From an uncultured archaeon (lineage in GTDB: Archaea > Asgardarchaeota > Heimdallarchaeia > Heimdallarchaeales > Heimdallarchaeaceae), in the NCBI GenBank assembly GCA_964534625.1, contig CAZHRF010000030.1, positions 1 through 40,845 of the forward strand: DNA of 40,845 nt, written 5' to 3'. The notes under the pieces were generated by a model. The model did not search any database, was not told where the DNA came from, and saw only the letters and a program-made list of their open reading frames with translations. Every line of letters starts with the position of its first letter. Position 1 is the first letter of the stretch. Of this stretch, positions 2,664 to 38,019 are shown piece after piece. The translations under genes were made by a program, and so were the position numbers.

Positions 2664-2688
2664 TGTTATATATGATAGTATGAAGCGA

Positions 2689-2785
2689 TGGCGAGCCTGC
2701 CAGGATTTGAACCTGGGACCTACTGCTTTCCACCAGTTTTGGCTATCCGCAGGCAGTTGTACTATCCAGACTATACTACAGGCTC
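2689..2785 (-). tRNA. tRNA-Arg(GCG) with 19-nt intron at 37/38 (2728-2746), encoded CCA
   Basis: Acceptor stem GAGCCTG/CAGGCTC, T-arm CCAGG-TTCAAAT-CCTGG, anticodon stem ACTGC/GCAGT; the intron forms a BHB (CUGC pairs with GUGG). Confidence 0.93.
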
Positions 2786-2886
2786 ATTTAATAAGTTCTA
2801 TGAAATGATAGTTCTTAGTAATCAGTTGAGATACCTTTTACTCCTCTTTATATTTTTCGATTTCAGCATTATTTTTCCTTTTTTAC

Positions 2887-3280
2887 TAGCCTATCTTCTT
2901 GAAAGCCCTGTCCTTGAGGGCGGGGATGAAAAGAAGAAAAACAATACAAGTTTAAGCATACAACCAGTTTGTAAGTATGACGTCTTTGTGTACGTGTTTT
3001 GGTGCCATCTCGAAAACCAAGAGTTATACGAGACAAAGAGAAAAAGATGGATGTAGAAGATAGGGTTACACATTAAACAACGATAATTGGTATACGTATC
3101 TAGCTAAGTAAGGGTATTGAGGACTTCCGATGTAGAGTCGGTACGTTGTGTATACTAGAACCATGTACTGTCGGGACGACAGTAACTATAGACGACGCTT
3201 GTGAACAAGAGGTAAGCCCTCATTTTGAGGCAACTTTGTTGAAGCAAGAAACCATCTGCCTTTAGGTATTGGTAGTTCAT
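2887..3280 (+). mobile_element. Non-autonomous internally deleted IS200/IS605 derivative retaining left end, omega-RNA-like region and right end
   Basis: Left end is nearly identical to 32993-33065 (TCTTCTTGAAA..GTCCTTGAGGGCGGGGATGAAAAGAAG); 20 bp internal identity 3005-3024 = 33567-33586; right end CAAGAAAC..GGTAGTTCAT as at 34365-34399. Confidence 0.85.
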
Positions 3281-3329: not shown

Positions 3330-3656
3330 GACGAAGCGAAAGTGCAACTACGGTCTTTTGACTGAGGAACTTCCTGACTCCGTTAATGCGATGTGGGTAC
3401 AAACCCACCATGTGAGAATATGGCTCTTGAAGCAGAAACGACACGTCCTATATTCAGATGACTATGATTCGATGAAAAGAATGGTGACATCTCTTGAGTT
3501 AATTTGATGAGGAGGATATAGGGAACGATGAAACGGTCAATCATCGCGGAGCAAGCTTAAATAGGGTCTTTTGACCGGGTTAAGCGCATAGGTGAATGTT
3601 GCAGGGAAGGTCCTTGACGGCTTCCTAACAGAATCAGGGGTACTCTTCGCATCGTC
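3330..3656 (+). ncRNA. rnpB: Archaeal RNase P RNA
   Basis: P1 GACGAAGCGAA/TTCGCATCGTC; GAGGAACTTCCTGA pairs with AACAGAATCAGGGGTA (P4 with bulged U); conserved GCAGAAAC, GATGAAACGG and GGAGCAAG; followed by a T-tract. Confidence 0.92.
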
Positions 3657-3816: not shown

Positions 3817-5574
3817 ATGGCTATAAAAAAATGGTTCGCGATGTATATTACAAAATCCCACTCTAGACAGTTTTTAATCTTTACATTTATAGTCATCACA
3901 AGTTTTCTTATTGTAACTTTTAGTATGACTTCCACTCAAACTGTTGGATATGAAGATGCGATTAGTCCCTTTTTTACTGAACAAAATGATGTGATTTTTG
4001 AGTTAAGTACTAATTCTTCTGATATTACTAGAGGAGAGGATGACTTGTTTCTTTTCTTTCGCTTTTCATATGAAAACGGATCATTTATTCATAATGCTAC
4101 AATAGAATACAATATTACTGATCCTATAGATGAAAGAGTTTATAACAGTTCTATGGCAGTTGAAACAGCAGATAATTTTCCTGTTAAAATTAATTGGATT
4201 AATTTTGTTGGATATCCAGAAGGAAACTATACAGTCTCAGCAAAAGCCAACAGCACAATGACACAAGCATACTTTGCTAATACATCATTTAGCTTATTCA
4301 TTTTACCATCCGGTCGTTTAAGGATGTATTTTCCAGACCATGAAACAAAACCAGTTATTTTAGACCGTAATGAAGAAAATAGCGTTGAATATCGTTTAAC
4401 GAATTATGGCGGATCTACAGTAACAAATGTAACAATTCTCCCAACTGTTGAAAAAAAGGGAACTGAAGGCTATGTGCAAATCATCATACCCCAACTTAAT
4501 ATATCATTAAAAGCAGGTAGTACTTTTATTGGTGAGATTAAACTTAAAAGTGAAACTTCCTTATATCAAAAACGAACATTTTTCCTATCGTATGCAAATA
4601 TAGATGATCCTGGGTTTAATGTATTAATTCAGAGTGATCCGTTGCAATTGATTTGTCAGCCAAGACTCAATATCTCCAGAGATATAAACTTTCCTCAGAA
4701 TATCACGATGGACGATATATATAGTGTCAATTTCAATATGGTTAATAATGAAGGTACAACTTTACGTATTACTTTCAATACAATAAGTAACCACATAAAT
4801 TTTACAGATTTTCATATTACGGGTGAATCTAGACCGGTTTCAATGGGATATAATCAGATAACATTGGAAGGAAAACCCATTCAAACAGGTGAAAATGTTC
4901 CAATCATAATTGAGATAAATATACAATGGAGGACAGTTGAAGGCAACTTTTGGTATTATCCTATATTCGATATTGTTAATACTGAGTTAGAAATTTTACC
5001 AATAGAAGAAACATTCAATATGTATAGTGATAACTTAATTGTTATTTTATTAATGTCTACGATGGTGTTTGGAATGGCTTACTTCTCTCGTGACATAATA
5101 GAAGCTATAACTAAGCAGAAAGATGGACAAGAAAAAACAATTATTGAGGAAACATATCCTCTTGATACAGTAGTTTTAGATGGTAGTAATATTGCATGGG
5201 AAGAAAAAGACAACAGTAACAAACCAAAGATTACAAATATTGAATTAATGATAAACAAACTGAGTAAGGCAAATTTTAAGAAAATCATTACAGTTGCGGA
5301 TGCTGCATTGAGATATCAGATTGATGATAGAAAGAGAATTGATCAACTAGTAAAAGAAGGAGCCATAAAAATGCTCCCTGCTAGAGTTGATGGGGATAAG
5401 TTTATTTTAAGAATAGCAGAAGAAGAAAATGCAATGATTGTGAGCAATGATTTATTTAAAGAATTTAGAGAGATAGCCCCGTGGATAGGAGAGAGAAGAA
5501 TACCATATACAATTTTAGATGAAGATGTGTATTTGCATCCAACTTCAGCTTCAACTGGATACGAAGAAGAATAA
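3817..5574 (+). CDS. Single-pass membrane protein: signal/anchor, Ig-like ectodomain, TM helix, C-terminal Zc3h12a/NYN-like PIN ribonuclease
   Basis: N-terminal hydrophobic helix; beta-rich region with about a dozen N-x-S/T sequons; TM LIVILLMSTMVFGMAYF; VVLDGSNIA...DGDKFILRIAEEENAMIVSNDLFKEF. Confidence 0.85.
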   Translation: MAIKKWFAMYITKSHSRQFLIFTFIVITSFLIVTFSMTSTQTVGYEDAISPFFTEQNDVIFELSTNSSDITRGEDDLFLFFRFSYENGSFIHNATIEYNITDPIDERVYNSSMAVETADNFPVKINWINFVGYPEGNYTVSAKANSTMTQAYFANTSFSLFILPSGRLRMYFPDHETKPVILDRNEENSVEYRLTNYGGSTVTNVTILPTVEKKGTEGYVQIIIPQLNISLKAGSTFIGEIKLKSETSLYQKRTFFLSYANIDDPGFNVLIQSDPLQLICQPRLNISRDINFPQNITMDDIYSVNFNMVNNEGTTLRITFNTISNHINFTDFHITGESRPVSMGYNQITLEGKPIQTGENVPIIIEINIQWRTVEGNFWYYPIFDIVNTELEILPIEETFNMYSDNLIVILLMSTMVFGMAYFSRDIIEAITKQKDGQEKTIIEETYPLDTVVLDGSNIAWEEKDNSNKPKITNIELMINKLSKANFKKIITVADAALRYQIDDRKRIDQLVKEGAIKMLPARVDGDKFILRIAEEENAMIVSNDLFKEFREIAPWIGERRIPYTILDEDVYLHPTSASTGYEEE

Positions 5575-5683
5575 CTTGTTAAATACAAATATTAAAAAAC
5601 ATTCTTTATTATCACTCATTTGAACAGTACCTTTGTCTATGATGTGATGGTTTATAAGAGATTAAGATATGAAATTATAAAAG

Positions 5684-6391
5684 GTGATACAAGTGATACA
5701 AGAAAATAATTTCCATGGAAGTATTAATTACACCAATACAAATGTAATTGAACATCTTCCAGAAGATTACTTCTATAAGAATGAATATGATTACTTGACT
5801 TTACCTGAAGTACAATTATTGCTTTTATTATCTGATACAAAAAAAGTTTATTCATTTTCAGGATTAAAAAAAAGTGCTGAGCTACACCAACATCGATTAA
5901 ACAAATCGATAAAAAGGCTAAAAGAACGAGATTTACTTAAAAAAAGAAAAGATGGAGACTATGAATTAACAGAAGATGGGAGTGTATATACTCATAATTT
6001 AATTAATACTTTGATAAAAAATGAAGCATTAAAATTATCACCTTCATCAGTAAAATCGACATATATTCGTTATACTCTACTTCCACCATTATCAAAAGAG
6101 AAAGTCGCTTCATTGTTTGAAAAAAGATGGTTTGGTAATTTTCGATATTTATATAAGAAAGAATCAGAAGAAAGGATCACTATCTGCTGGGAAAACGAAA
6201 GTAATGATCAACTCATTGCTCATATTGAAGAAAATGGTGAGATAATAGCAGAGTACAAAAGTAAAAAACCAGAAAACAACATAATGTTTCATCTTACAAA
6301 TTGGATGAAAAGAGAATTAGAAACTAGATATAAGGTAAAGATGGAACGACAAAAGAGAAAGAAATATAACGATCGAGAAGTATATAACTAG
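5684..6391 (+). CDS. Winged-HTH domain protein with unknown C-terminal domain
   Basis: YSFSGLKKSAELHQHRLNKSIKRLKERDLLKKRKDGDYELTEDG is a wHTH signature; the start is uncertain. Confidence 0.7.
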   Translation: MIQVIQENNFHGSINYTNTNVIEHLPEDYFYKNEYDYLTLPEVQLLLLLSDTKKVYSFSGLKKSAELHQHRLNKSIKRLKERDLLKKRKDGDYELTEDGSVYTHNLINTLIKNEALKLSPSSVKSTYIRYTLLPPLSKEKVASLFEKRWFGNFRYLYKKESEERITICWENESNDQLIAHIEENGEIIAEYKSKKPENNIMFHLTNWMKRELETRYKVKMERQKRKKYNDREVYN

Positions 6392-6489
6392 CTTTTATAT
6401 TTAAACTGCTTTTTTTTAGATAAAGTAACATCCAGTTGAATTTATTAATGTTATCTAATTTTATTGAATGAATTACCATATAAGAATTT

Positions 6490-6535
6490 ATGAACTACTC
6501 CAATCTAAAGGAGTGGTTTTTCTGGCTAGACATAG
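6490..6535 (-). mobile_element. 46 bp minimal IS200/IS605 element or footprint (left-end start, one hairpin, right end)
   Basis: Minus strand reads TTTTAC|CTATGTCTAGCCAGAAAAACCACTCCTTTAGATTGGAGTAGTTCAT; it has the same GTAGTTCAT end and TTTTAY flank as the two larger elements. Confidence 0.6.
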
Positions 6536-6634
6536 GTAAAAACTTAGTCATTATATATGAAAAGCTTTAATGTTACTTAGATAAGTTAAAATTTAGCTTA
6601 CAGTAAATAATAGTAAGTAAATGAGGTAAAAATA

Positions 6635-7297
6635 ATGAATGGTTTCAATCAAGCAGGAGCACCAAATACTTATTCTGATCCCAAGAAAGGTACTACTACT
6701 GTAGCGCTCAAATTCGACAAAGGCGTAGTAGTTGCGACCGATCGAAGGGCATCAATGGGTACTTTTGTTGCTTCTAAACATGCAAAAAAATTGCATAAGA
6801 TAAACGATAAAACTGTCGCTACAATTGCCGGATTAGTTGCTGACGCACAATATTTAGTTAATTTAGTCAGAGCTAATATCAATCTGTATGAGTTAAATAG
6901 GGGATACCACCCTTCAACTAAGATGATTGGCAATTTGTTAGCATCAATAATGTACGAACAATTCCGAGCATATTTCCCATACTTCACACATATGTTAATT
7001 TGTGGTTTAGATAAAGAAGGACCACACGCGTTTTTTATTGAATCTGCGGGTTCAATAAGTGATGAAGATTATGTGTCAACGGGATCTGGGTCTCTATTAG
7101 CATATGGCGTAATGGAAGCTCTATGGGAACCAGATATGGTAGAAGATGATGCCATTAATTTAGTAATCAAAGCCATTTCATCTTCAATTAAAAGAGACAC
7201 AGCAACCGGTAATGGTATAGATCTTTGTGTTGTTACCGAAGATGGAACAAAATTCTTGGAAGAATCCGAGATTAAGGAACGTGGAGGTGCAATCTAA
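6635..7297 (+). CDS. psmB: Proteasome beta subunit
   Basis: Propeptide ending KG|TTTV, DRRASMG, Lys33-equivalent, STGSGS, RDTATG. Confidence 0.96.
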   Translation: MNGFNQAGAPNTYSDPKKGTTTVALKFDKGVVVATDRRASMGTFVASKHAKKLHKINDKTVATIAGLVADAQYLVNLVRANINLYELNRGYHPSTKMIGNLLASIMYEQFRAYFPYFTHMLICGLDKEGPHAFFIESAGSISDEDYVSTGSGSLLAYGVMEALWEPDMVEDDAINLVIKAISSSIKRDTATGNGIDLCVVTEDGTKFLEESEIKERGGAI

Positions 7298-14131: not shown

Positions 14132-14222
14132 GGTCTTGTAGCTCAGATGGATAGAGCGTTTGCCTCCTAAATTCCCTGGAGATAGCAAATGGTCGGGCGT
14201 TCAAATCGCCCCAAGACCGCCA
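14132..14222 (+). tRNA. tRNA-Arg(CCT) with 14-nt intron at 37/38 (14170-14183), encoded CCA
   Basis: GGTCTTG/CAAGACC acceptor stem, TTTGC/GCAAA anticodon stem, GGGCG-TTCAAAT-CGCCC; BHB helix CUCC/GGAG. Confidence 0.94.
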
Positions 14223-14843: not shown

Positions 14844-15968
14844 ATGAAAGTAGGTATATGTTGTTTTCCTAAAGTTGGCGGAAGTGGAATTGCCGCCTCA
14901 CAGTTAGCTTTGGGGCTTGCACAGAAAGGTCACAAAGTCAATGTTATTAGCTATGACACACCCTTTTTATTAAAAACCACACGTCATCCAAATATTACGC
15001 TAACACTTGTCGATATACTGTCTTATCCACTTTTTAAGGACATAGGTGCTCCCTATACGATCCTTTGCGCATCTAAAATGATTAATACGATTAAAGAAGA
15101 AGGATTAGACATCATTAATGTACATTATTCAATACCTACTGCGGTATCTGCTTATTTAGCCAAATCTTTCTGTGATATCCCAATTGCTATCACACCACAT
15201 GGTTCTGATATACACATACTTGGTATTGATCCTGCCTATAATCCTGTTATTTCTGAGGTTCTAAAACATGCTGACGGAGTCTCAACTGTTTCCAATTATA
15301 TGAAGCGAGAAATAGAAGAAAAGTTTACAAATGAAATACCAATTAGAGTTATTTATAACGCTATTGACACAGAGCGTTTTAAAAGAACCGATTTTAAAAT
15401 TTGTGATTTTAGGATGACACAAGAAAAGTATTTACTGCATGTATCAAACTTCCGACCCGTTAAGAATGGGCCATTTATCGTCGAATGTTTTGCTGAAGTT
15501 TTAAAAGAATATCCTAATACAGGCTTAATAATGATAGGTGAAGGGCCAGAGAGAAAGAAATGCGCGGAACTAGCGCGAGAACTAGATATTCAAGACAATG
15601 TCCTTTTCCAAGGAGTTCGTATTGTTCTTTCGCCTATTTACACTTGTAGCTCAGCACTATTATCTGCTAGTTCTAATGAAAGTTTTGGTTTAACTCTGGC
15701 TGAAGCAATGGCTTGTGAAACCCCAGTAATCGCACCAAACGTAGGGGGGATTCCCGAAGTTGTAGATCATGGAAAATCAGGTTTCATATATGAACCGAAT
15801 AATAAAGAACAATTCATCAAGTATATATGCCAAATACTAGAAGATAGTCAATTAGAAAAAAGACTCGGAAGAAACGGTAGGCAACGGGTAAAAAAGCATT
15901 TTAATTTAGATAAAATAACTGATCAATATTTAGACTGGTTCCAAGAAACAATAAATAGGAGTAAATAA
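14844..15968 (+). CDS. bshA: N-acetyl-alpha-D-glucosaminyl L-malate synthase (GT4)
   Basis: KVGICCFPKVGGSG, YPLF, VHYSIP, HGSDI, HVSNFRPVK, ESFGL..AEAMAC closely follow BshA; adjacent to bshC. Confidence 0.87.
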   Translation: MKVGICCFPKVGGSGIAASQLALGLAQKGHKVNVISYDTPFLLKTTRHPNITLTLVDILSYPLFKDIGAPYTILCASKMINTIKEEGLDIINVHYSIPTAVSAYLAKSFCDIPIAITPHGSDIHILGIDPAYNPVISEVLKHADGVSTVSNYMKREIEEKFTNEIPIRVIYNAIDTERFKRTDFKICDFRMTQEKYLLHVSNFRPVKNGPFIVECFAEVLKEYPNTGLIMIGEGPERKKCAELARELDIQDNVLFQGVRIVLSPIYTCSSALLSASSNESFGLTLAEAMACETPVIAPNVGGIPEVVDHGKSGFIYEPNNKEQFIKYICQILEDSQLEKRLGRNGRQRVKKHFNLDKITDQYLDWFQETINRSK

Positions 15969-15976
15969 GTATGAAA

Positions 15977-17608
15977 CTACAAACGAATATTAAGATAACT
16001 CATTCCACCGATAGGTAAATTCTCTGAATAAGCCCGGTAATACTCCTCCAAGAACGAATATAATCCAGTTACACTCGCCATTACAAGCCATGACCAACTC
16101 ACTTCTTGCTTGTTATGATTTTCATCATACATACCAAATTGCCAAGACTTATATCTGGCGAGTTTGCTTATAGGATCACACTCTGTTTCTTTCAGTTTTT
16201 GAATAGTGTTTGATATTTGGGTCATTATTTCTTTTGAACTTTCTAATAAACCTTCTTTATCTTGTTTTCTCTTCGCTTTTCCTATCTTCCCTAGAGATCT
16301 AAAGAAAGATCCATTAAACAACGATAGATTACCAATTTCTTTGGATTTCGCTAAATCTTCTATCCACGGAGAATTATAAAAAAGGCGTGTATATTTTACA
16401 TGTATCGGGGTGTTTATCCCAATTTTTCTAATTGCGGGGAGAACTTGTGCATAATAATTTATTTCACCGGGACCAGATACCCTTATTTTGACCGGAATAA
16501 TTGAATTAACTATAGCTTGATTGGAATCCAGACGGGGAGATATCGAATTTCCAATATCATTTAGGTCTATATTATCCAAGTCGTAATCAAAAATATACTT
16601 TTCTTTACAAATGGAACATTTGCCACTCAGAGTGATATTTTCACCATTTTTTCTATAAGAGAGAGATAAGCGATTTTTATCATTCTTACACTCATAAAAG
16701 AAAGGAACAAAATCTGTCTTTTTCTTTCTTGTAGTAGGAGCCAATTCCATTTTTAATATTTTTTCTGTTGCATTATTAAACTCGTCAATATATGTATCAC
16801 GTTTAATTAAAAAGGGTTTATAGCCATCTACCATTAGTTGTCTCAGTTCGGGATGGGACGAAGGAAAGAAAACAATCCCCCAGTCGTTAATAATATTCGC
16901 TTGAACACCATAAATAAGAGTCACCCATTCTCCTAGATCTTTTGAGTTGCGATATGTTTCTCTAAGGAAAGTTAACAAATGCATGACTTTTTCATTAAAC
17001 AATTTTTGATTATTACTATTACCTATTGATGATCTGAATTCATTGAAGATGTTTTTCATTACAGAAAGTTGACTCTCAAGCCAATCAAATTGATCAGTTT
17101 CAATTACAACAGAAGACAAACCATCTTCATACTTTTCGAGTTTTATTGGTTTATTGATTGCTGATTGATAATTTGGTAGATGAATTGTCGAAATTTCAGG
17201 TTGTATGCTATCATGTGCACTTACAAAAAAAAAGGGTATAAGATTATGAACATTTGAACGTTTAGTACTTATATCAGCTAATTTGTATGCACATGCTATT
17301 TTATTATAAATAAGACCCACACCACCAAAAATCGTAGATTGTTGACCAGCCATTACAACTCCATTTTCTAAAGATTCAATGTTTTTTTGGACTTTTGGAG
17401 TTAGAATACCTAGTCTCTGATGATATTCCTTCAATATTTTTTTTGCTTTAGATAGTTTGGAATGGTTAATGGTGGACGGTGGTAGGGACATTGCCATATC
17501 TATAGCATCACCATATGTTTTCGGGATATACTTATAAAAATATTCAAGATTGGGAAAAGGTTCATCATGCCAAACATAAGACTCGTAAAGTTCACCTATT
17601 TTGTTCAT
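15977..17608 (-). CDS. bshC: Bacillithiol biosynthesis cysteine-adding enzyme
   Basis: VMAGQQ..FGG..YNK, FFVSAHD..EI, PFFYE and SGPGEINYYAQ match BshC motifs; 543 aa. Confidence 0.82.
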   Translation of the reverse strand: MNKIGELYESYVWHDEPFPNLEYFYKYIPKTYGDAIDMAMSLPPSTINHSKLSKAKKILKEYHQRLGILTPKVQKNIESLENGVVMAGQQSTIFGGVGLIYNKIACAYKLADISTKRSNVHNLIPFFFVSAHDSIQPEISTIHLPNYQSAINKPIKLEKYEDGLSSVVIETDQFDWLESQLSVMKNIFNEFRSSIGNSNNQKLFNEKVMHLLTFLRETYRNSKDLGEWVTLIYGVQANIINDWGIVFFPSSHPELRQLMVDGYKPFLIKRDTYIDEFNNATEKILKMELAPTTRKKKTDFVPFFYECKNDKNRLSLSYRKNGENITLSGKCSICKEKYIFDYDLDNIDLNDIGNSISPRLDSNQAIVNSIIPVKIRVSGPGEINYYAQVLPAIRKIGINTPIHVKYTRLFYNSPWIEDLAKSKEIGNLSLFNGSFFRSLGKIGKAKRKQDKEGLLESSKEIMTQISNTIQKLKETECDPISKLARYKSWQFGMYDENHNKQEVSWSWLVMASVTGLYSFLEEYYRAYSENLPIGGMSYLNIRL

Positions 17609-18095: not shown

Positions 18096-18818
18096 TTATA
18101 TCCCTTTTTTTAATCTGTTTATCAAAAAACAATGAATGTTTAATTCTTCCATCTTTTTGCATGTTGTTTCCAAATCATAAGCAAGCCTTACTATTTCAAA
18201 ACTGAACTTTTTATTGAACTCATCAATTTCCATCATCATAAAAGAGGCTTTTGGATTTCTATCTCTTGGTTGACCAACAGATCCTGGATTAAACAAGTGT
18301 TTATTATTATTAGTTATGTGTAAAGGTTTATGTGTATGTCCTAAAAATAAAAAATCAACATCAGCAAAATCATTAGTAATTTGAAAGAACATATTATAAG
18401 ACCAAGAAGGTAAATCAGGACTTACATAATCTCGCAACGGTTTTCTAGGCGATCCATGTACATACATTCCTGTTCCTTCTGTTATAAAAATAGGGGATAT
18501 GGAAAATAGGGGATAAGTTCCCAGTAATTCGATATAATCCTTTGATAACTGTTCTTTTGTCCACAATAATCTTAATTTAGGTAAGGGATTGAAATAGGTA
18601 AAATTGTTTTTATACAGAGCATAATCATGATTACCTACGACTTTGATATGAGCTATGTCTTCAACAAGATCAATACATCCTTTTGGATCAGGTCCATATC
18701 CAACAACATCCCCTAAAAACACAATAAGATCAGGTGACTGATCCTTAATATAATCAACTACTACAGTTAGGGCTTCTATATTTGCATGGACATCAGAGAA
18801 TATTGCTAAAGTCGTCAT
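18096..18818 (-). CDS. Calcineurin-like metallophosphoesterase
   Basis: SDVHAN, GDVVGYG, GNHD, HGSP, GHTH, NPGSVGQPRD; AGGTGA SD precedes ATG 18818. Confidence 0.93.
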   Translation of the reverse strand: MTTLAIFSDVHANIEALTVVVDYIKDQSPDLIVFLGDVVGYGPDPKGCIDLVEDIAHIKVVGNHDYALYKNNFTYFNPLPKLRLLWTKEQLSKDYIELLGTYPLFSISPIFITEGTGMYVHGSPRKPLRDYVSPDLPSWSYNMFFQITNDFADVDFLFLGHTHKPLHITNNNKHLFNPGSVGQPRDRNPKASFMMMEIDEFNKKFSFEIVRLAYDLETTCKKMEELNIHCFLINRLKKGI

Positions 18819-19027
18819 ATTATGAATCACCTAGTTTGGTGTTATATGAATTGTATACTTATCAAACAATGAATTACCACATATATAGTTTTTGAACGAA
18901 TGTTAATGTTTTTTATGTTACCATAAATGATACTTTTAGATGTTCATATAAACTTTAAAAATTAGAATTACTACACTTTTTGAACTAAAAATAAAGTTAA
19001 AAAAGAAGAAAAGAGAGATTTAGAGAA

Positions 19028-21495: not shown

Positions 21496-22722
21496 ATGAG
21501 AACTAATATTAAAGATAAACTGATAAAAGAAGAATTCAAAGAGGAAGAGAACATCAGAGAACTTCCAATTAATGCGCTCCTAGATATATCTGAGTCGGAG
21601 CATAAAGTATTACTTGAAGCTGGTGTTAATCAAATTTCAGATCTGGCGGATAATTGGAATAAATATTATGAAAAATTAGTCAAAAAAATACCTAGGGAGA
21701 GAGTAAACAGTTGGATAGCTGCAAGTCGTCTTCTATTAGTTGAAGATGAAGATCGGATAGCTATGGGGGCAAAAATTATTTTAGCTGGTATAGATAATGC
21801 GGGGAAAACATCATTATCTATTGCACTACAACATAGAGGTGCATTATCATTATTATTTCAAAAATTATACGCATTAACACCAACAAGAGGACTATTAAGA
21901 AGAAAAATTGAAGTTTTCGGCTTAGATGCACACATTCATGAACTTGGAGGACAGAAAATTTATAGAGAGGATTATCTACAAAATCCCGAACAATATTTTG
22001 TTGGAACAGACATCATAATTTACGTGGTAGATGTACAAGCTCCCGATAGATATGAAGAAAGTTTTGAATACTTAAAACAAATCATACAAGTAACGAAATC
22101 GTTACACTTGTCGATTCCTTGGAAATTATTCTTCCATAAAAGTGATCCAGAGTTTATACCTGATAAAAAAGCAGTAGAAATATTTGAATCAATGGTTAAT
22201 TATATGACAAATCACTTACCACATTTCCAACCCTCAAGGGATATTTTTAGAACAAGTGTAAAAATTAGATCAACAGTTTTAGGTGCTTTTTCCCATATAT
22301 TCAGAGATATAGCCTTAATACAAGATTCAATTGATCAAGCTTCAAAACAAGTAGCAAATAAACTTAAAGCAGATTATTTTGGGTTATATGATTTCAGGAG
22401 TAATGTGTGTTTTGCTCAATATGTTGAAAAAGAAGAGTTAGAAGAATTATCCCATAATGCTTACTATGAAGCTATTGAAACAATTGCCAATATGAGAGAA
22501 CCTTTCTTACGAATAAGAAGATTTACTTTAGATAATAATGAAAATGAGATATTTATTCTTAGGGATGTGAATTTTGGAGAAGAGCGATATATATGTTGTA
22601 TCTTGACACCTCATGAAGAGACAGCAAGACAACTCGATAAGGATGAAATTGAAGAAATCATCAATCAACATTTAGCAGAATGGATCGAATTTAGGCGTTA
22701 TGCAAAATTCCCAATAGATTAA
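21496..22722 (+). CDS. Small GTPase (Rag/Arf-like) with N-terminal HhH-like and C-terminal roadblock/longin-like domains
   Basis: GIDNAGKT, TPT, ELGGQ, YVVD, FHKSD, RTSV. Confidence 0.85.
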   Translation: MRTNIKDKLIKEEFKEEENIRELPINALLDISESEHKVLLEAGVNQISDLADNWNKYYEKLVKKIPRERVNSWIAASRLLLVEDEDRIAMGAKIILAGIDNAGKTSLSIALQHRGALSLLFQKLYALTPTRGLLRRKIEVFGLDAHIHELGGQKIYREDYLQNPEQYFVGTDIIIYVVDVQAPDRYEESFEYLKQIIQVTKSLHLSIPWKLFFHKSDPEFIPDKKAVEIFESMVNYMTNHLPHFQPSRDIFRTSVKIRSTVLGAFSHIFRDIALIQDSIDQASKQVANKLKADYFGLYDFRSNVCFAQYVEKEELEELSHNAYYEAIETIANMREPFLRIRRFTLDNNENEIFILRDVNFGEERYICCILTPHEETARQLDKDEIEEIINQHLAEWIEFRRYAKFPID

Positions 22723-28394: not shown

Positions 28395-28760
28395 GTGCAA
28401 AGCTCAAATCAAGATAGTGAAACTTTTTGTGCAAATTGTAATAATAAAATACTTATGAATAAAGAAATTCTTTTTCATGGGTGCCCTATCTGTGGTTCAC
28501 ATAAGTTTAAGAAAAAGAGGATAATGACAGAAGACGAACGAATAGAAGAAGAATTTAGTTTGTACATTAATGAAGAAATGACGAAAGAAGAAATTGAAAA
28601 AGAAATCGAATCTATCCGTCTTACTGCAGATGGTACATTTGAATTAGATATAGACCAACTCCTCAAAGAAACAAGCGAACGAAAACCAATTATTAGCATG
28701 GATAGAGATGGTACGTTCCACATAAAATTAGAAGAAAAAGAGGATAAAGAAGATGTATAG
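28395..28760 (+). CDS. DUF2072 Zn-ribbon protein (OapC/ArvC-like)
   Basis: CANC...GCPICGSHKF, ESIR...GTFELDIDQLL, II...DGTFHI. Confidence 0.85.
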   Translation: MQSSNQDSETFCANCNNKILMNKEILFHGCPICGSHKFKKKRIMTEDERIEEEFSLYINEEMTKEEIEKEIESIRLTADGTFELDIDQLLKETSERKPIISMDRDGTFHIKLEEKEDKEDV

Positions 28761-29470: not shown

Positions 29471-30403
29471 ATGATTACTTTTCTATCTGGTGGTACAGGA
29501 ACACCGAAATTAATACAAGGGTTTAGATCGATAGTTGATGATAGTCAAATTGCCGTTATTGCAAATTCTGCAGACAATATTGAAATGTTTGGTCTTTACA
29601 TTACACCTGACATAGATACGATTTTATACTTATTTTCCGATATTCTCGACACCACCAAAATGTGGGGAATAAAAAATGAAACATTGGAAACACATACTTT
29701 TTTACAAAAACTTACCAAAACAGCATGGTTCATGTTAGGAGACAAAGATTTAGCCGTTCATATGATACGATCAAAATTATGGAGGAAAGGAGAGAGCCTC
29801 TCAACTATTACAGATTACCTTACCAAATTATTTTCGGTTTCAGCAAACATTATACCTTCAACAGACAATCATATAGAAACAAGAATTCAATTGAAAAATG
29901 GCAAGGATATACATTTCCAAGAGTTTTGGGTTAAACATAGAGGAAAAGTAGAAATAAAAGATATATATGTTAAAAATTTGAAAAAAGCAAAAATACCCCC
30001 ACGCATTGATAATATATTAAAAAAATCGGAAATTATAATCATCGGACCAAGCAATCCAATAACAAGTATAGGTCCCATGTTACAAATTAAAGAATTAAGA
30101 AGATTACTCAAAAAGAATAAACATAAAACAATAGCTATAAGTCCAATTATTGGTCATGCAGCAATAAGTGGTCCTGCAGCAGCATTGATGAATGCAAAAG
30201 GGATTGAAGCAACTGCATTAGGTACAGCTTCTTATTACAAAGAGTTTATTACAAAATTTTACATAGATACTAAAGATACAAAGAAAAAAAAACAGATTGA
30301 AAGAGAAACAGGATTAGAATTAGGAGTCCATGATATCATTTTTAATGCAAAGGAAAAAACAAAAAGTTTTGCAGAAATAATTTTGAAGGAGTATAGTAAG
30401 TAA
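29471..30403 (+). CDS. cofD: 2-phospho-L-lactate transferase
   Basis: LSGGTGTPKL, PDIDT, LGDKD, HFQEFWV, GPSNPITSIGP, SGPA. Confidence 0.95.
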   Translation: MITFLSGGTGTPKLIQGFRSIVDDSQIAVIANSADNIEMFGLYITPDIDTILYLFSDILDTTKMWGIKNETLETHTFLQKLTKTAWFMLGDKDLAVHMIRSKLWRKGESLSTITDYLTKLFSVSANIIPSTDNHIETRIQLKNGKDIHFQEFWVKHRGKVEIKDIYVKNLKKAKIPPRIDNILKKSEIIIIGPSNPITSIGPMLQIKELRRLLKKNKHKTIAISPIIGHAAISGPAAALMNAKGIEATALGTASYYKEFITKFYIDTKDTKKKKQIERETGLELGVHDIIFNAKEKTKSFAEIILKEYSK

Positions 30404-31188
30404 TGACGAAAAAAAGCCTTTTCACACCACCTATTGCACAAGCGGCAATTGGAGGATGGGCTAATGGAAAATTTTGTCAAGAGTTACTTAATATAAATTT
30501 GGGTATGGTAACATTAGGGGGATACGGTCTTTGTGAGAGAAATATTCAAGCTACGCAGAAGATTATTGAGCGAGGAAGAAAAGAGCTTATATTTCCTTAT
30601 GACCTTGATAAATTCAAATTTTGGACTGCAAAAAATCTTTCACTCAAAAAGAAACTAGTTACACAAAAAATCGCCATTAATGTACGAATTAACAACATTA
30701 CTGATAATACACTAACTAGAATAAAATCCATTAGTGCGTATGTTGATTTTTTCGAATTTAATGCGCATTGTAGGCAACCTGAAGTTCTTTCGATTAATGG
30801 GGGACAAACTTTTGTTGAAGATTTAGATAGACTCGATAGTATATTAGAAGAATTAAATCAGAAAGCAAATTTCAAACCATGGGGAATAAAAATTCGCGGA
30901 TTCAAAGTTTCAAATACTTTAAAATTAATCAAAATTTTAGAATCTAATAACATTATGTATTTGCATATTGATATGATGCTACCAGACGAGCCTAAAAGTG
31001 ATTTATCTATTCTTACCCAGTATACTAAACTAACAGATATACCTATAATTGCGAATAATTCTATCCGAACTGCTACTGATATCAAAGAAAGACTAAAAAA
31101 TGGTGCAACAGCAGTCTCTATGGCAAGACCATTTTTGAAAACAAACAACGAAAAGATTTGTAAATTAATAGAGATAATGGATGGATAA
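30403..31188 (+). CDS. MJ0144-like / Dus-like TIM-barrel protein
   Basis: LGGY, EFNAHCRQPE, KIR, LHID.M, IIANNSI, GATAVSMAR. Confidence 0.8.
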   Translation: MTKKSLFTPPIAQAAIGGWANGKFCQELLNINLGMVTLGGYGLCERNIQATQKIIERGRKELIFPYDLDKFKFWTAKNLSLKKKLVTQKIAINVRINNITDNTLTRIKSISAYVDFFEFNAHCRQPEVLSINGGQTFVEDLDRLDSILEELNQKANFKPWGIKIRGFKVSNTLKLIKILESNNIMYLHIDMMLPDEPKSDLSILTQYTKLTDIPIIANNSIRTATDIKERLKNGATAVSMARPFLKTNNEKICKLIEIMDG

Positions 31189-31190
31189 TA

Positions 31191-31808
31191 ATGACTCTAG
31201 GTATAATAATCCCTTTCAGAGGAACACAAAAGGACAAGAGCAGACTTAGAGAAAACATGGATGATCAATTGGTGAATGAGTTGCTTAAAGAGATGTTTAT
31301 CCATGTTTTGAATGAAGTTGTCAAAATTAAATTCGATAAAACCGTCTATATTCTAACAACGAAAAAACAATTGAATTTTTGTAAATATAAACATGAAATA
31401 ATAAATGATACAGGAGACAATTTAAACAAATCATTAATAGAAGCGATTAGACAAGTTAAAGAAGAAATAATTGTTATACTCATGGCAGATCTACCCCTAG
31501 TTACTAAAAAAGAAATCCTTGCCACAATCCAAAATCTTCAACACTATGATGTTGTTATTGCTCCCTCTAATGACAAAGGGACAAGTATCTTAGCATTTAA
31601 ACGAAGCATTGACTTTCCGTTCCTTTTTGGAAAGAATTCTTCTTTAAACTTTATGAAATACTTTAAAAAAACAGGACATAAAGTGAAAATGTTGAAATAC
31701 TCACAAAGATTTAGAGATATAGACACCTTTAAAGACATTCTTCACCTTCAGAATATTATGACACATTCTGATGAGTTTGCAGATACAATTCAAGGAAGAT
31801 GTGATTAA
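31191..31808 (+). CDS. cofC: 2-phospho-L-lactate/PEP guanylyltransferase
   Basis: IIIPF...KSRL, LNKSL, LMADLP, PSNDKGT, FG..S, DIDT..D. Confidence 0.88.
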   Translation: MTLGIIIPFRGTQKDKSRLRENMDDQLVNELLKEMFIHVLNEVVKIKFDKTVYILTTKKQLNFCKYKHEIINDTGDNLNKSLIEAIRQVKEEIIVILMADLPLVTKKEILATIQNLQHYDVVIAPSNDKGTSILAFKRSIDFPFLFGKNSSLNFMKYFKKTGHKVKMLKYSQRFRDIDTFKDILHLQNIMTHSDEFADTIQGRCD

Positions 31809-32986: not shown

Positions 32987-34399
32987 TTGAACGTCTTCTT
33001 GAAAACCCCGTCCTTGAGGGCGGGGATGAAAAGAAGAAAAAACAATACACGTTTTAGCATACAAACATTTTTGAATAAAAAAAACTAAGAGAAGGATGAA
33101 ATGAAGGTCAACAGAGCATATAAGGTGAGAATATACCCAACAGAAGAACAAGAACAGATGCTCATAAAGACCTTCGGGTGTTGTAGGTTCCTCTGGAATA
33201 ACATGCTAGCGGAACGAAAAGAGATATACGAAAAACTAAAAGACAACAAAGAAGAACTGTACGAGTACACCTATAAAACAGAAAAGGAGTATAAACAAGC
33301 GTATACGTTCCTGAAAGACGTGGGGAGTAGGGCGTTACAAGAAGAACGAATACACCTAGAACGGGCATTCAAAGAGTTTTTCAAAGGAACACGGGGATAC
33401 CCCAAGTTTAAGTCCAAGAAACACCCTCGTCAAAGTTTTACGACCTACAATGTTAACAACAACGTAAAGATAGATTTTAAGAAAAAGAAGATTAAAGTAC
33501 CCAAAATTAAGCAATGGTTCAAGTATAGAGACAACAGAATCTTTACTGAACCGATTAAAATTAGTACCATCTCGAAAACCAAGAGTGGAAAGTATTATAT
33601 TTCACTCGTAATAGAAAAAGAAAACAATACACCAAAAAAAACAACAGTCAATAAACATAAAATTATAGCGGTAGATATGTCCGCGACACACTTTTTAGTG
33701 TCAAGAAAGTTCAAACTCACTAATCCACGTTTCTATAGGAAAGAAGAAAAGAAAATTAAACGATTACACCGGTTGGGTAGCACGGAAAAAGAAAGGGTCA
33801 AAAAATAGGACTAAAGCAAGAATAAGGTTAGCCAGAACGTATGAGACCATCAATAATAAACGGAAGGATTATCTACATAAACTCACTACCTGGTTAACCA
33901 CCACCTATGATGTCGTTATCATTGAAGACCTTAACCTTACAGGTATACAACAATTTAATGGTGGCATAAGTAAGTCCGTTACGTTGGATTTTTCGTGGGG
34001 AGAGTTTGTCCGTTTACTTGCGTATAAACTTGAAGAACGGGGAAAGTATCTTATAAAGGTAGACCGTTTCTTTCCTTCCAGTAAGCAGTGTTCAACGTGT
34101 GGATATATCCACAAACGCTTACGTTTATCTGACCGCACCTGGGTTTGTCCTTCTTGTTCTACTACCCATGATAGGGATACTAATGCTAGTTATAATTTGT
34201 TTGTTGAAGGTTGTCGCCTTCTTACTACTCATCATCATTGTACCGTAGGTACTACGGGAACGTACGCTTGTGGAGAAGTTGTCATTCCTCTGCGTTTTCT
34301 CTATTACCATTTGTTTGGTCATAGTATTCGCTATTCTTTTTCTTTTGAGGTTGCTTCTATGAAACAAGAAACTCCATCCTTGAGGGTGGGGTAGTTCAT
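32987..34399 (+). mobile_element. IS200/IS605 family element carrying tnpB only (IS1341-like)
   Basis: Left-end hairpin CCCCGTCCTTGAGGGCGGGG, right-end hairpin CTCCATCCTTGAGGGTGGGG followed by TAGTTCAT; no tnpA. Confidence 0.88.
33101..34394 (+). pseudogene. tnpB: TnpB RNA-guided endonuclease with a +1 frameshift near 33773
   Basis: RAYKVRIYPT, FGCCRFLWN, YPKFKSK, IAVD (RuvC-I); removing one base at about 33773 gives WVARKKKGSKNRTKAR...IIEDL...PSSKQCSTCG...CPSC..HDRDTNAS. Confidence 0.9.
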
Positions 34400-36316: not shown

Positions 36317-36664
36317 ATGACATTCGAGATCAATTTTATTCCCAATACAGAAACGGAAGCATTAGAAATGGAAGAAAAGATCAACTATATTCTTGAAAGA
36401 GTAACAAAGAAGAAGATTTTAGTTCTTGAAAATGGTCTAACATCGCAAGAAGAGTTCAGTTTAATCAAGAATACAATGCAAAGAATTAATTATAAAGACT
36501 TTGTAGGAATTAAGCTTGAAACATTTAGTGGCGGGGAAACGGTTAAAAAGTCACTTTTTAGTTCAACAGCTAAAAAATCTATATTCACAATTATTGCCCC
36601 TGAACAAGCAGTAAATGTACTAAAAGATGATAAAGGTATTTTGTCATTAAAAATAGGTAGATAA
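36317..36664 (+). CDS. DUF2073 protein (OapB/ArvB-like)
   Basis: EKINYIL..V....ILVLENGLT.QEE..LI..TM..I....FVGI, TIIAP; directly downstream of oapA. Confidence 0.85.
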   Translation: MTFEINFIPNTETEALEMEEKINYILERVTKKKILVLENGLTSQEEFSLIKNTMQRINYKDFVGIKLETFSGGETVKKSLFSSTAKKSIFTIIAPEQAVNVLKDDKGILSLKIGR

Positions 36665-37222: not shown

Positions 37223-37933
37223 TTATTGAAGCATTTCTTCTTTTAGTTTCCTTTTTCCTTTTAATGCCTTTATTAATTCAATCTTCTTTGCTTCTCCTGA
37301 CTTTATTTTCCGTATATTATCTCCCTGTCTTGTAAGCATAATCAAGGCTATAATAAATAAGAGAATACCTATTTCCAGATTGTCCATTGGATTCCAAGGC
37401 ATTAACCAGGGGATAAATAAGCCTATTATTCCAACAAGTAGTGTTGTAACTATGTATGTTATAGAAGAATATCCAACAATAATTATACAAATTGGCCACA
37501 ACAAAATCCAAGCAGCAATTAAAATGGGATTCATATAGATCATTGTTCCCAAAACAACAGTAATACCTCTTCCTCCATGCGTTTTAAAATACAATGGCCA
37601 ATTATGCCCTAGAATTGCAGCAGCACCAGCTACTGTTAATAAAAAGCGCCCATCTGTAAGACCAATGAAGTTATTTTTTCCATATTCAATTAATATATGT
37701 GGAACTATAATAGCTGCAAGAGTTCTTAACATATCTAAAAATCCGGCTAAGAGGGCCCAAAACCATGATCCGGTAGCTCTATAGACATTTCTTCCACCTA
37801 CGTTTTTTGAACCTATTTCACGCAAATCTTTTCCTGTTCGCCATTTAGTAATAATCCAACTAAAAGGAATTGAACCCAACATATAAGCTATAACAAAGAC
37901 GAACACATAATCTACAAGGTAAGTATAAATCAT
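37223..37933 (-). CDS. plsY: Glycerol-3-phosphate acyltransferase PlsY-like membrane protein
   Basis: YMLGSIPF, DLREIGSKNVGGRNVYR, LGHNWPLY...GGRGI, R..NI.KI..G. Confidence 0.85.
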   Translation of the reverse strand: MIYTYLVDYVFVFVIAYMLGSIPFSWIITKWRTGKDLREIGSKNVGGRNVYRATGSWFWALLAGFLDMLRTLAAIIVPHILIEYGKNNFIGLTDGRFLLTVAGAAAILGHNWPLYFKTHGGRGITVVLGTMIYMNPILIAAWILLWPICIIIVGYSSITYIVTTLLVGIIGLFIPWLMPWNPMDNLEIGILLFIIALIMLTRQGDNIRKIKSGEAKKIELIKALKGKRKLKEEMLQ

Positions 37934-38019
37934 GTTTATAAAATAACCAGCTTTAATAAAAAGCTTCTCACCTTGAATGAACAATTAATTTTTATAGAGG
38001 ACTAGGATTAAACTATTTG

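Follow-up and report, generated by a model that had tools for sequence, protein, structure and literature searches.

A predicted bacillithiol-type gene set in a Heimdallarchaeaceae archaeon, with a zinc-ribbon-like archaeal subfamily of BshC

A 40,845-nucleotide stretch of DNA from an uncultured archaeon of the family Heimdallarchaeaceae (contig CAZHRF010000030.1 of assembly GCA_964534625.1; this whole stretch is called the window below) carries genes related to all three enzymes that synthesize bacillithiol, a bacterial antioxidant built from sugar and cysteine: BshA, BshB and BshC. The bshA gene and a bshC-like gene lie tail to tail, with stop codons only 8 bp apart (15969-15976), and a bshB-like gene lies some 12 kb away, behind a co-directional open reading frame (ORF) for a flavoprotein resembling thioredoxin reductase (TrxR), from which it is separated by 52 bp. 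A first-pass annotation, made from the letters alone, had described both the convergent pair and the distant deacetylase gene with its TrxR-like neighbor, and the coordinates and ORFs proved to be exactly as it had claimed. The genes of interest are as follows.

14844-15968, + strand: bshA, 374 amino acids (aa), member of the TIGR03999 equivalog family
15977-17608, - strand: bshC-like gene of an archaeal zinc-ribbon subfamily (protein P0002, 543 aa), putative cysteine-adding enzyme
2010-2663, + strand: bshB-like gene for a PIG-L/LmbE zinc deacetylase (protein P0003, 217 aa)
1031-1957, + strand: TrxR-like flavoprotein gene, its product with a CAIC motif (C141/C144) and degenerate NADPH motifs
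18096-18830: metallophosphoesterase gene, upstream of bshC, beside which there is no VOC gene

The family motifs named in that annotation could each be located: GICCFPKVGGSG at residues 4-15 and HVSNFRPVK at 199-207 of BshA, GQQ at 88-90 and GPGEINYY at 379-386 of the BshC-like protein (GPGE being residues 379-382), and YAEAF at 193-197 of the deacetylase, which also contains AHPDDE at 8-13 and HIDH at 98-101. Chance matches are excluded by the E values of the three proteins on their family models (8.8e-104 for BshA on TIGR03999, 5.6e-25 for the BshC-like protein on PF10079 and 4.6e-24 for the PIG-L protein on PF02585).

The window belongs to a metagenome-assembled genome (MAG) of 3.37 Mb in 120 contigs, 89.8% complete and with 2.6% estimated contamination, and its DNA is present in microbial-mat metagenome runs, possibly its own source. 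The claim that these genes reside in an archaeon is borne out by the archaeal and Asgard markers with which they share the contig. An archaeal RNase P RNA (RF00373, 161.7 bits) occupies 3332-3654 on the + strand, between the bshB-like gene and a gene for an NYN-domain RNase (3817-5574), and the contig also encodes TSR3, proteasome alpha and beta subunits, Rpb5/RpoH, OapB and OapC, and a 408-aa small GTPase of the Gtr1/RagA and Arf families (21496-22722, + strand), one of the eukaryote-signature proteins that typify Asgard archaea. The bsh genes have 32-36% G+C, in keeping with the genome mean of 32%. Close homologues named by NCBI are assigned to Candidatus Heimdallarchaeaceae, and the closest BshC relatives among named genomes come from Candidatus Heimdallarchaeota MAGs, at 49-54% identity.

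The three candidate enzymes

Judged by its sequence, the product of bshA is clearly a full member of its equivalog family. On TIGR03999 (cut-off 273.7) it reaches 347.4 bits and spans model positions 1-374 of 375; among the control genomes, only those of Bacillus subtilis and Deinococcus radiodurans gave matches above the cut-off of this model. The protein has the PF13439 and PF00534 domains of the GT-B architecture of glycosyltransferase family 4 (GT4), and among solved structures it is closest to BshA of Bacillus anthracis, B. subtilis and Staphylococcus aureus (2JJM/3MBO, 5D00, 6D9T, 6N1X), at 236-251 bits, with the next GT4 enzyme at 66 bits. Six other GT4 hits were found in the genome. 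The functional residues of S. aureus BshA are H118, T120, N171, K209, E280-S-F-G283 and E288 (PMC10361700), and at the positions equivalent to those listed residues, as established from the motif positions and an alignment to B. anthracis BshA, the archaeal protein has H119, S121, N172, K207, E279-S-F-G282 and E287, so that the only change is a conservative one from Thr to Ser.

The BshC-like protein is more divergent. It passes PF10079 (88.9 bits; gathering threshold 27) and is the only match to PF10079 or to the BshC model TIGR03998 in its own genome, and a sequence comparison matched it to the B. subtilis BshC structure 4WBD with an E value of only 7.6e-5. The fold provides a firmer connection. 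An AlphaFold2 model built with 28 homologues (predicted local distance difference test, pLDDT, 92; predicted template modelling score, pTM, 0.93) found 4WBD as its top Foldseek match over the full length (E 3e-19, TM scores 0.69/0.69), followed by class I LysRS; neither the sequence comparison nor Foldseek gave a match of the MshC or CysRS type. In the alignment of BshC-like homologues, residues Q90, G379 and E382 are invariant and G381 is nearly so (at least 90% of rows), and in several lineages the GQQ motif is exchanged for AHQ or GHQ.

A distinctive feature of this archaeal type is an inserted cysteine motif, YEC(x4C)...GKCPxC, which resembles a zinc ribbon and lies in a beta-rich region (residues 303-343). 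When 1.84 billion representatives were searched exhaustively, 61 relatives appeared at E values of 1e-10 or better, and the full-length members of this set carry the motif, except for the Heimdallarchaeaceae representative P0031, in which it has been lost. The canonical proteins with TGQQ and GPGE, which appeared in the same search at E values from 1e-9 to 1e-4, are without it. The named motif-bearing members are all archaeal, coming from Promethearchaeota, Ranarchaeia, 'Bathyarchaeota', Kariarchaeaceae and Heimdallarchaeaceae. The full ribbon of four cysteines is seen, for example, in the f31-type protein of locus L026. Three cysteines of the insert are left in the protein from the window (C307, C331 and C334), and several Heimdallarchaeaceae relatives keep fewer. 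Because the motif is decaying within this family, the ribbon is more likely to be structural than catalytic, as far as can be judged from the sequences. A distant BshC-like paralogue of about 560 aa was also encountered, in two genomes of family f5, scoring 40-45 bits on PF10079. Its gene (5155-6846, + strand, at locus L063; 4787-6463, - strand, at L064) and a class I/II aminotransferase gene form a tail-to-tail pair near an ArgRS gene, and the paralogue is probably unrelated to bacillithiol.

The candidate deacetylase P0003 matches PF02585 with 85.8 bits. Among five PIG-L models tried, that of BshB1 (TIGR04001) fits it best, at 102.8 bits, ahead of BshB2 at 58.6 bits and MshB at 55, and P0003 is the top BshB1 match among the three PIG-L genes of its genome. 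Its residues H9, D12 and H101 align to the zinc ligands His12, Asp15 and His113 of BC1534. Among solved structures, P0003 comes closest to BshB1 6P2T (58 bits) and BC1534 2IXD (55 bits); a diacetylchitobiose deacetylase follows at 46 bits. Synteny is the strongest support for the assignment. Within Heimdallarchaeaceae the bshB-like gene is found 11-25 kb from bshA, and in four other Asgard families orthologues of P0003 with 33-46% identity lie directly beside bshA-bshC (loci L022, L026, L027, L028, L033, L034 and L035). Given this clustering of three genes in other Asgard lineages, together with the BshC fold, the conserved motifs and the metal ligands, the BshC-like and PIG-L proteins are the best and the only plausible partners of BshA.

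Distribution and ancestry in the Asgard archaea

The occurrence of these genes was scanned in 400 genomes of the phylum, and BshA was found above the cut-off in 146 of them. Strong BshC-like matches were confined to the same families as BshA, namely f1-f4, f7, f12 and f31-33, and the two were found in nearly equal numbers: 29 and 28 of the 30 genomes of f1 for BshA and BshC, respectively, all 16 genomes of f2-f4 for both, 16 and 17 of 19 in f12, and 78 and 77 of 89 in f31-33. No BshA was found in any of the 135 genomes of f20, the largest family sampled, nor in f5. Wherever both genes were present in the Asgard loci examined, they were adjacent (33 of 33), and the tail-to-tail arrangement of the window recurs in the eight closest public Heimdall MAGs. 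The pair also occurs in the single-contig relatives G014 and G015.

A second arrangement was detected in a sister family, f7, and in genome G286, which carry a canonical, bacterial-type bshC-bshB-bshA operon (L024, 4216-7564; L025, 4709-8139; L032). The hosts belong to the same phylum and the BshA to the same family, whereas the BshC of these operons scores 375-389 bits, above the TIGR03998 cut-off, has no zinc ribbon and falls among canonical representatives. Two independent types of bsh cluster are thus present in Asgard archaea, and since the BshA of the f7 operon has a score similar to that of the others, both types of BshC pair with the same kind of BshA. On its sequences, the f7 operon was probably acquired separately.

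In the BshC tree, a long branch with an SH-aLRT (Shimodaira-Hasegawa-like approximate likelihood ratio test) value of 100 splits the archaeal type from the canonical sequences, those of f7 and G286 among them. The archaeal type itself divides into a clade of the host's own order and a clade of other Asgards (SH-aLRT 95-100), and most host families form clades; the BshA tree mirrors this pattern. With two named bacterial sequences (Calditrichota and Aminicenantes) and none from Firmicutes, the BshA tree speaks to relationships within the Asgards rather than to the root, the donor or a single origin of the two archaeal clades. Because both trees largely follow the host families, the cluster is old in Asgards and largely vertically inherited. 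The first-pass annotation had looked to phylogeny to separate ancient acquisition from recent transfer, and on this question the trees speak for antiquity within the Asgards and against a recent transfer.

A proposed pathway and its alternatives

The family membership of BshA, the fold of the BshC-like protein, the metal ligands of the BshB-like protein and the co-occurrence and clustering of their genes are what the analysis shows, and the genes of the window quite probably form a functional three-step route to bacillithiol, or to a closely similar variant, in a Heimdallarchaeaceae archaeon of a microbial mat. We infer the substrates, the product and the reductase of this pathway as follows. 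BshA would join UDP-N-acetylglucosamine (UDP-GlcNAc) and L-malate to form GlcNAc-Mal, and the zinc-dependent BshB-like PIG-L enzyme would deacetylate this product to GlcN-Mal. The BshC-like protein would then add cysteine to the free amine of GlcN-Mal. As a low-molecular-weight thiol, the product would act as a buffer and scavenge electrophiles, and it might be kept reduced either by a homologue of the reductase YpdA/Bdr or by the CxxC-containing TrxR-like protein encoded beside bshB.

Both candidate reductases deserve comment. The YpdA/Bdr homologue is encoded on another contig of the same genome (G000:C15:1544-2509), which is 60 kb long and of native G+C, and it scores above the TIGR04018 cut-off (355.7 versus 339.9 bits). 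Its gene (1474-2487, - strand, at locus L011) adjoins genes for Hsp20 and for an MsbA/CydDC-like ABC exporter. The TrxR-like protein scores 210 bits on TIGR01292 (cut-off 343); compared with S. aureus TrxR (4GCM), it keeps the CAIC motif, and both NADPH signatures have been lost (GGGDSA replaced by GNDNHA and HRRDE by AKEE). The order of TrxR-like gene and PIG-L gene is preserved in all four other Heimdallarchaeaceae genomes checked, and other TrxR-like CxxC genes stand beside bshC in family f4 and in related loci. The f4 proteins are 25-29% identical to the TrxR-like protein of the window and match a paralogue on contig C2 equally well. What has been observed for the TrxR family is thus recurrent adjacency only, from which we infer a possible role in the thiol pathway. 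Homologues of CofD and CofC, proteins of F420 biosynthesis, flank a TIM-barrel flavoprotein-like ORF elsewhere in the window (29471-31808, + strand), and it is a speculation that F420 could be the donor for a TrxR-like protein without NADPH motifs. A DinB-family gene, a candidate thiol transferase, lies on contig C18 of the genome.

A number of points weigh against a bacillithiol pathway. Of the three family assignments made in the first-pass annotation, only that of BshA stands at the level of the equivalog models: the BshC-like protein reaches 85.3 bits on TIGR03998 (cut-off 265.8), matching only model positions 16-434 of 529, and the BshB-like protein reaches 102.8 bits on TIGR04001 (cut-off 182.5). 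The BshC-like protein is only about 15% identical to 4WBD, the one solved BshC, and contains an insert that bacterial BshC lacks. Because the f5 paralogue occurs in the absence of BshA, the PF10079 fold by itself is no proof of bacillithiol synthesis; moreover, no reconstitution of the BshC reaction has been achieved, not even for the bacterial enzyme (PMC5790435). Neither the bacilliredoxins BrxA/B (PF06491) nor BrxC/YtxJ (TIGR04019) were found in the host genome, which is 89.8% complete. The YpdA/Bdr homologue is patchy, with only 8 of 83 genomes in the class carrying one, and it contains no cysteine: it has GAGPVGLA in place of GGGPCGLS, and so lacks the Cys14 of Firmicutes. This residue is reported not to be conserved in distant homologues outside Firmicutes (PMC8113031), and its absence therefore weakens the assignment without excluding it. 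Finally, no detection of bacillithiol from any archaeon is on record (PMC7278568), in agreement with the first-pass remark that no biochemical demonstration in archaea was known to its author. That annotation had proposed that the organism may use bacillithiol or a variant. The BshA equivalog, the BshC fold and the three-gene clustering support the proposal, and the scores of BshC and BshB below their equivalog cut-offs, along with the distinct zinc-ribbon subfamily to which the BshC belongs, make 'or a variant' the accurate wording.

The rival that survives best, although it is considerably less likely than bacillithiol or a very close variant, is a different conjugate based on glucosamine (GlcN), with another hydroxy-acid aglycone, with a modified (e.g. 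N-methylated) cysteine or with another amino acid. The low BshC score, the strongly supported long branch that separates the archaeal from the canonical BshC, the zinc-ribbon-like insert and the exchange of GQQ for AHQ or GHQ in several lineages could all be understood in this way, as could the low BshB score and its small margin over archaeal diacetylchitobiose deacetylases (58 versus 46 bits), and N-methyl-bacillithiol provides a precedent for derivatives (PMC12719100). However, the choice of aglycone lies with BshA, which passes its strict cut-off with the listed functional residues kept; GQQ and GPGE are intact in the BshC-like protein of the window, and the canonical operon of f7 has a BshA of similar score. 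A related idea, somewhat more doubtful still, is that the cluster represents an ancient Asgard form of the pathway, marked by the zinc-ribbon BshC subfamily and by recurrent linkage to CxxC TrxR-like flavoproteins without NADPH motifs; the insert and the flavoprotein could then supply the cofactor or partner that has been missing from reconstitution of the bacterial BshC reaction, or a novel thiol variant could be what is made, in use among archaeal relatives of eukaryotes that inhabit oxygen-exposed mats.

It is improbable that there is no thiol pathway at all, with the GT4 and PIG-L enzymes acting in envelope or glycan metabolism (chitobiose, GlcNAc) and the BshC-like protein being an unrelated ligase. 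Archaeal PIG-L enzymes do include diacetylchitobiose deacetylases, the genome contains two further PIG-L paralogues as well as the six other GT4 hits, and the f5 paralogue shows a BshC-like protein without BshA, beside an aminotransferase. Yet even in distantly related Asgard families the three genes are found together and in tight clusters, and co-occurrence and co-localization with bshA is how bacterial bshC was originally identified (PMC5790435); the specificity of the BshA model among the control genomes argues in the same direction. An origin of the bsh genes in a bacterial contig binned by mistake, or in a bacterial transfer of very recent date, for which one might cite the mainly bacterial occurrence of bacillithiol and the estimated contamination of the MAG, is very improbable and is refuted computationally by the archaeal RNase P RNA, TSR3, proteasome, RpoH and Asgard-type Rag/Arf GTPase on the same 40.8-kb contig, the native G+C, a BshC subtype whose named members are only archaeal, trees that follow host families, and the presence of the pair in G014 and G015.

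Other features of the window and relation to known systems

Several other features of the window were noted. Two long tRNA genes, probably containing introns, lie at 2692-2785 (- strand, 94 nt) and 14132-14219 (+ strand, 88 nt); the first overlaps a mechanical ORF (2688-3056) and was given no anticodon by ARAGORN, and the second was found by Rfam and missed by ARAGORN. A split gene resembling IS605 OrfB/TnpB, with an ORF bearing a helix-turn-helix (33101-33808) and a TNB-domain ORF (33984-34394) on the + strand, is probably a broken transposon-associated nuclease. The + strand also encodes, 8 kb apart, homologues of OapC (28395-28760) and OapB (36317-36664), two origin-associated proteins, and a replication origin may be located near them. 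A PlsY-type glycerol-3-phosphate acyltransferase gene (37223-37984, - strand) represents a bacterial-type lipid enzyme on an archaeal contig.

With respect to known systems, the closest likeness is to bacterial BshA, BshB and BshC (2JJM/3MBO, 5D00, 6D9T, 6P2T, 2IXD, 4WBD), which are the same three types of enzyme with the same predicted chemistry. The equivalog membership and functional residues of BshA, the His/Asp/His site of BshB, and the 4WBD fold with GQQ and GPGE in the BshC-like protein are shared. The archaeal system differs in its Asgard host, its separate BshC subfamily with a cysteine-rich insert, a BshB below the cut-off and the absence of BrxA, BrxB and BrxC from the matches found, and its gene order is also unlike the bacterial one, with bshA and bshC tail to tail and bshB 12 kb off behind a TrxR-like gene. 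Mycothiol synthesis by MshA, MshB and MshC follows a parallel logic, in which a GT4 enzyme is followed by a PIG-L deacetylase and by a cysteine ligase resembling class I aminoacyl-tRNA synthetases. The proteins of the window are nevertheless unlike those of mycothiol synthesis, with 78 bits for BshA on the MshA model (cut-off 462), 55 bits for the deacetylase on MshB (cut-off 224) and no MshC match for P0002.

The prediction itself is not new. Rawat and Maupin-Furlow reported in 2020 that InterPro holds 39 archaeal hits each for BshA and BshC, mostly from Asgard archaea, and made the same prediction that Asgard archaea may synthesize bacillithiol (PMC7278568). Their review gives InterPro counts only, with two archaeal YpdA homologues, and leaves aside BshB, clustering and the BshC subtype; it was subsequently cited by Gaballa et al. 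in 2021 in support of a broad occurrence across Bacteria and Archaea. BshA and BshC proteins so named by NCBI are also on record for Candidatus Heimdallarchaeaceae, at 50-68% identity to those of the window, and the novelty implied by the first-pass annotation was accordingly overstated. A 2025 survey of RefSeq, on the other hand, found no archaea with all three enzymes (PMC12719100). The Asgard genomes described here correct that statement, and the negative result was probably due to missed MAGs and to the divergence of the archaeal BshC. The feature is thus real, ordinary in kind and predicted before, and what has been added are modest refinements: a zinc-ribbon BshC subtype that is so far known only in archaea, a conserved three-gene cluster, and a second cluster of bacterial type.

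With the genomic prediction already published and annotated, the value that remains lies in experiment, for which the details added here offer concrete constructs. If the proposed pathway is confirmed, the closest archaeal relatives of eukaryotes would count among their redox tools a thiol cofactor that has been considered bacterial, and this would bear on the oxidant tolerance of Heimdall-group archaea that live in oxygen gradients such as those of microbial mats.

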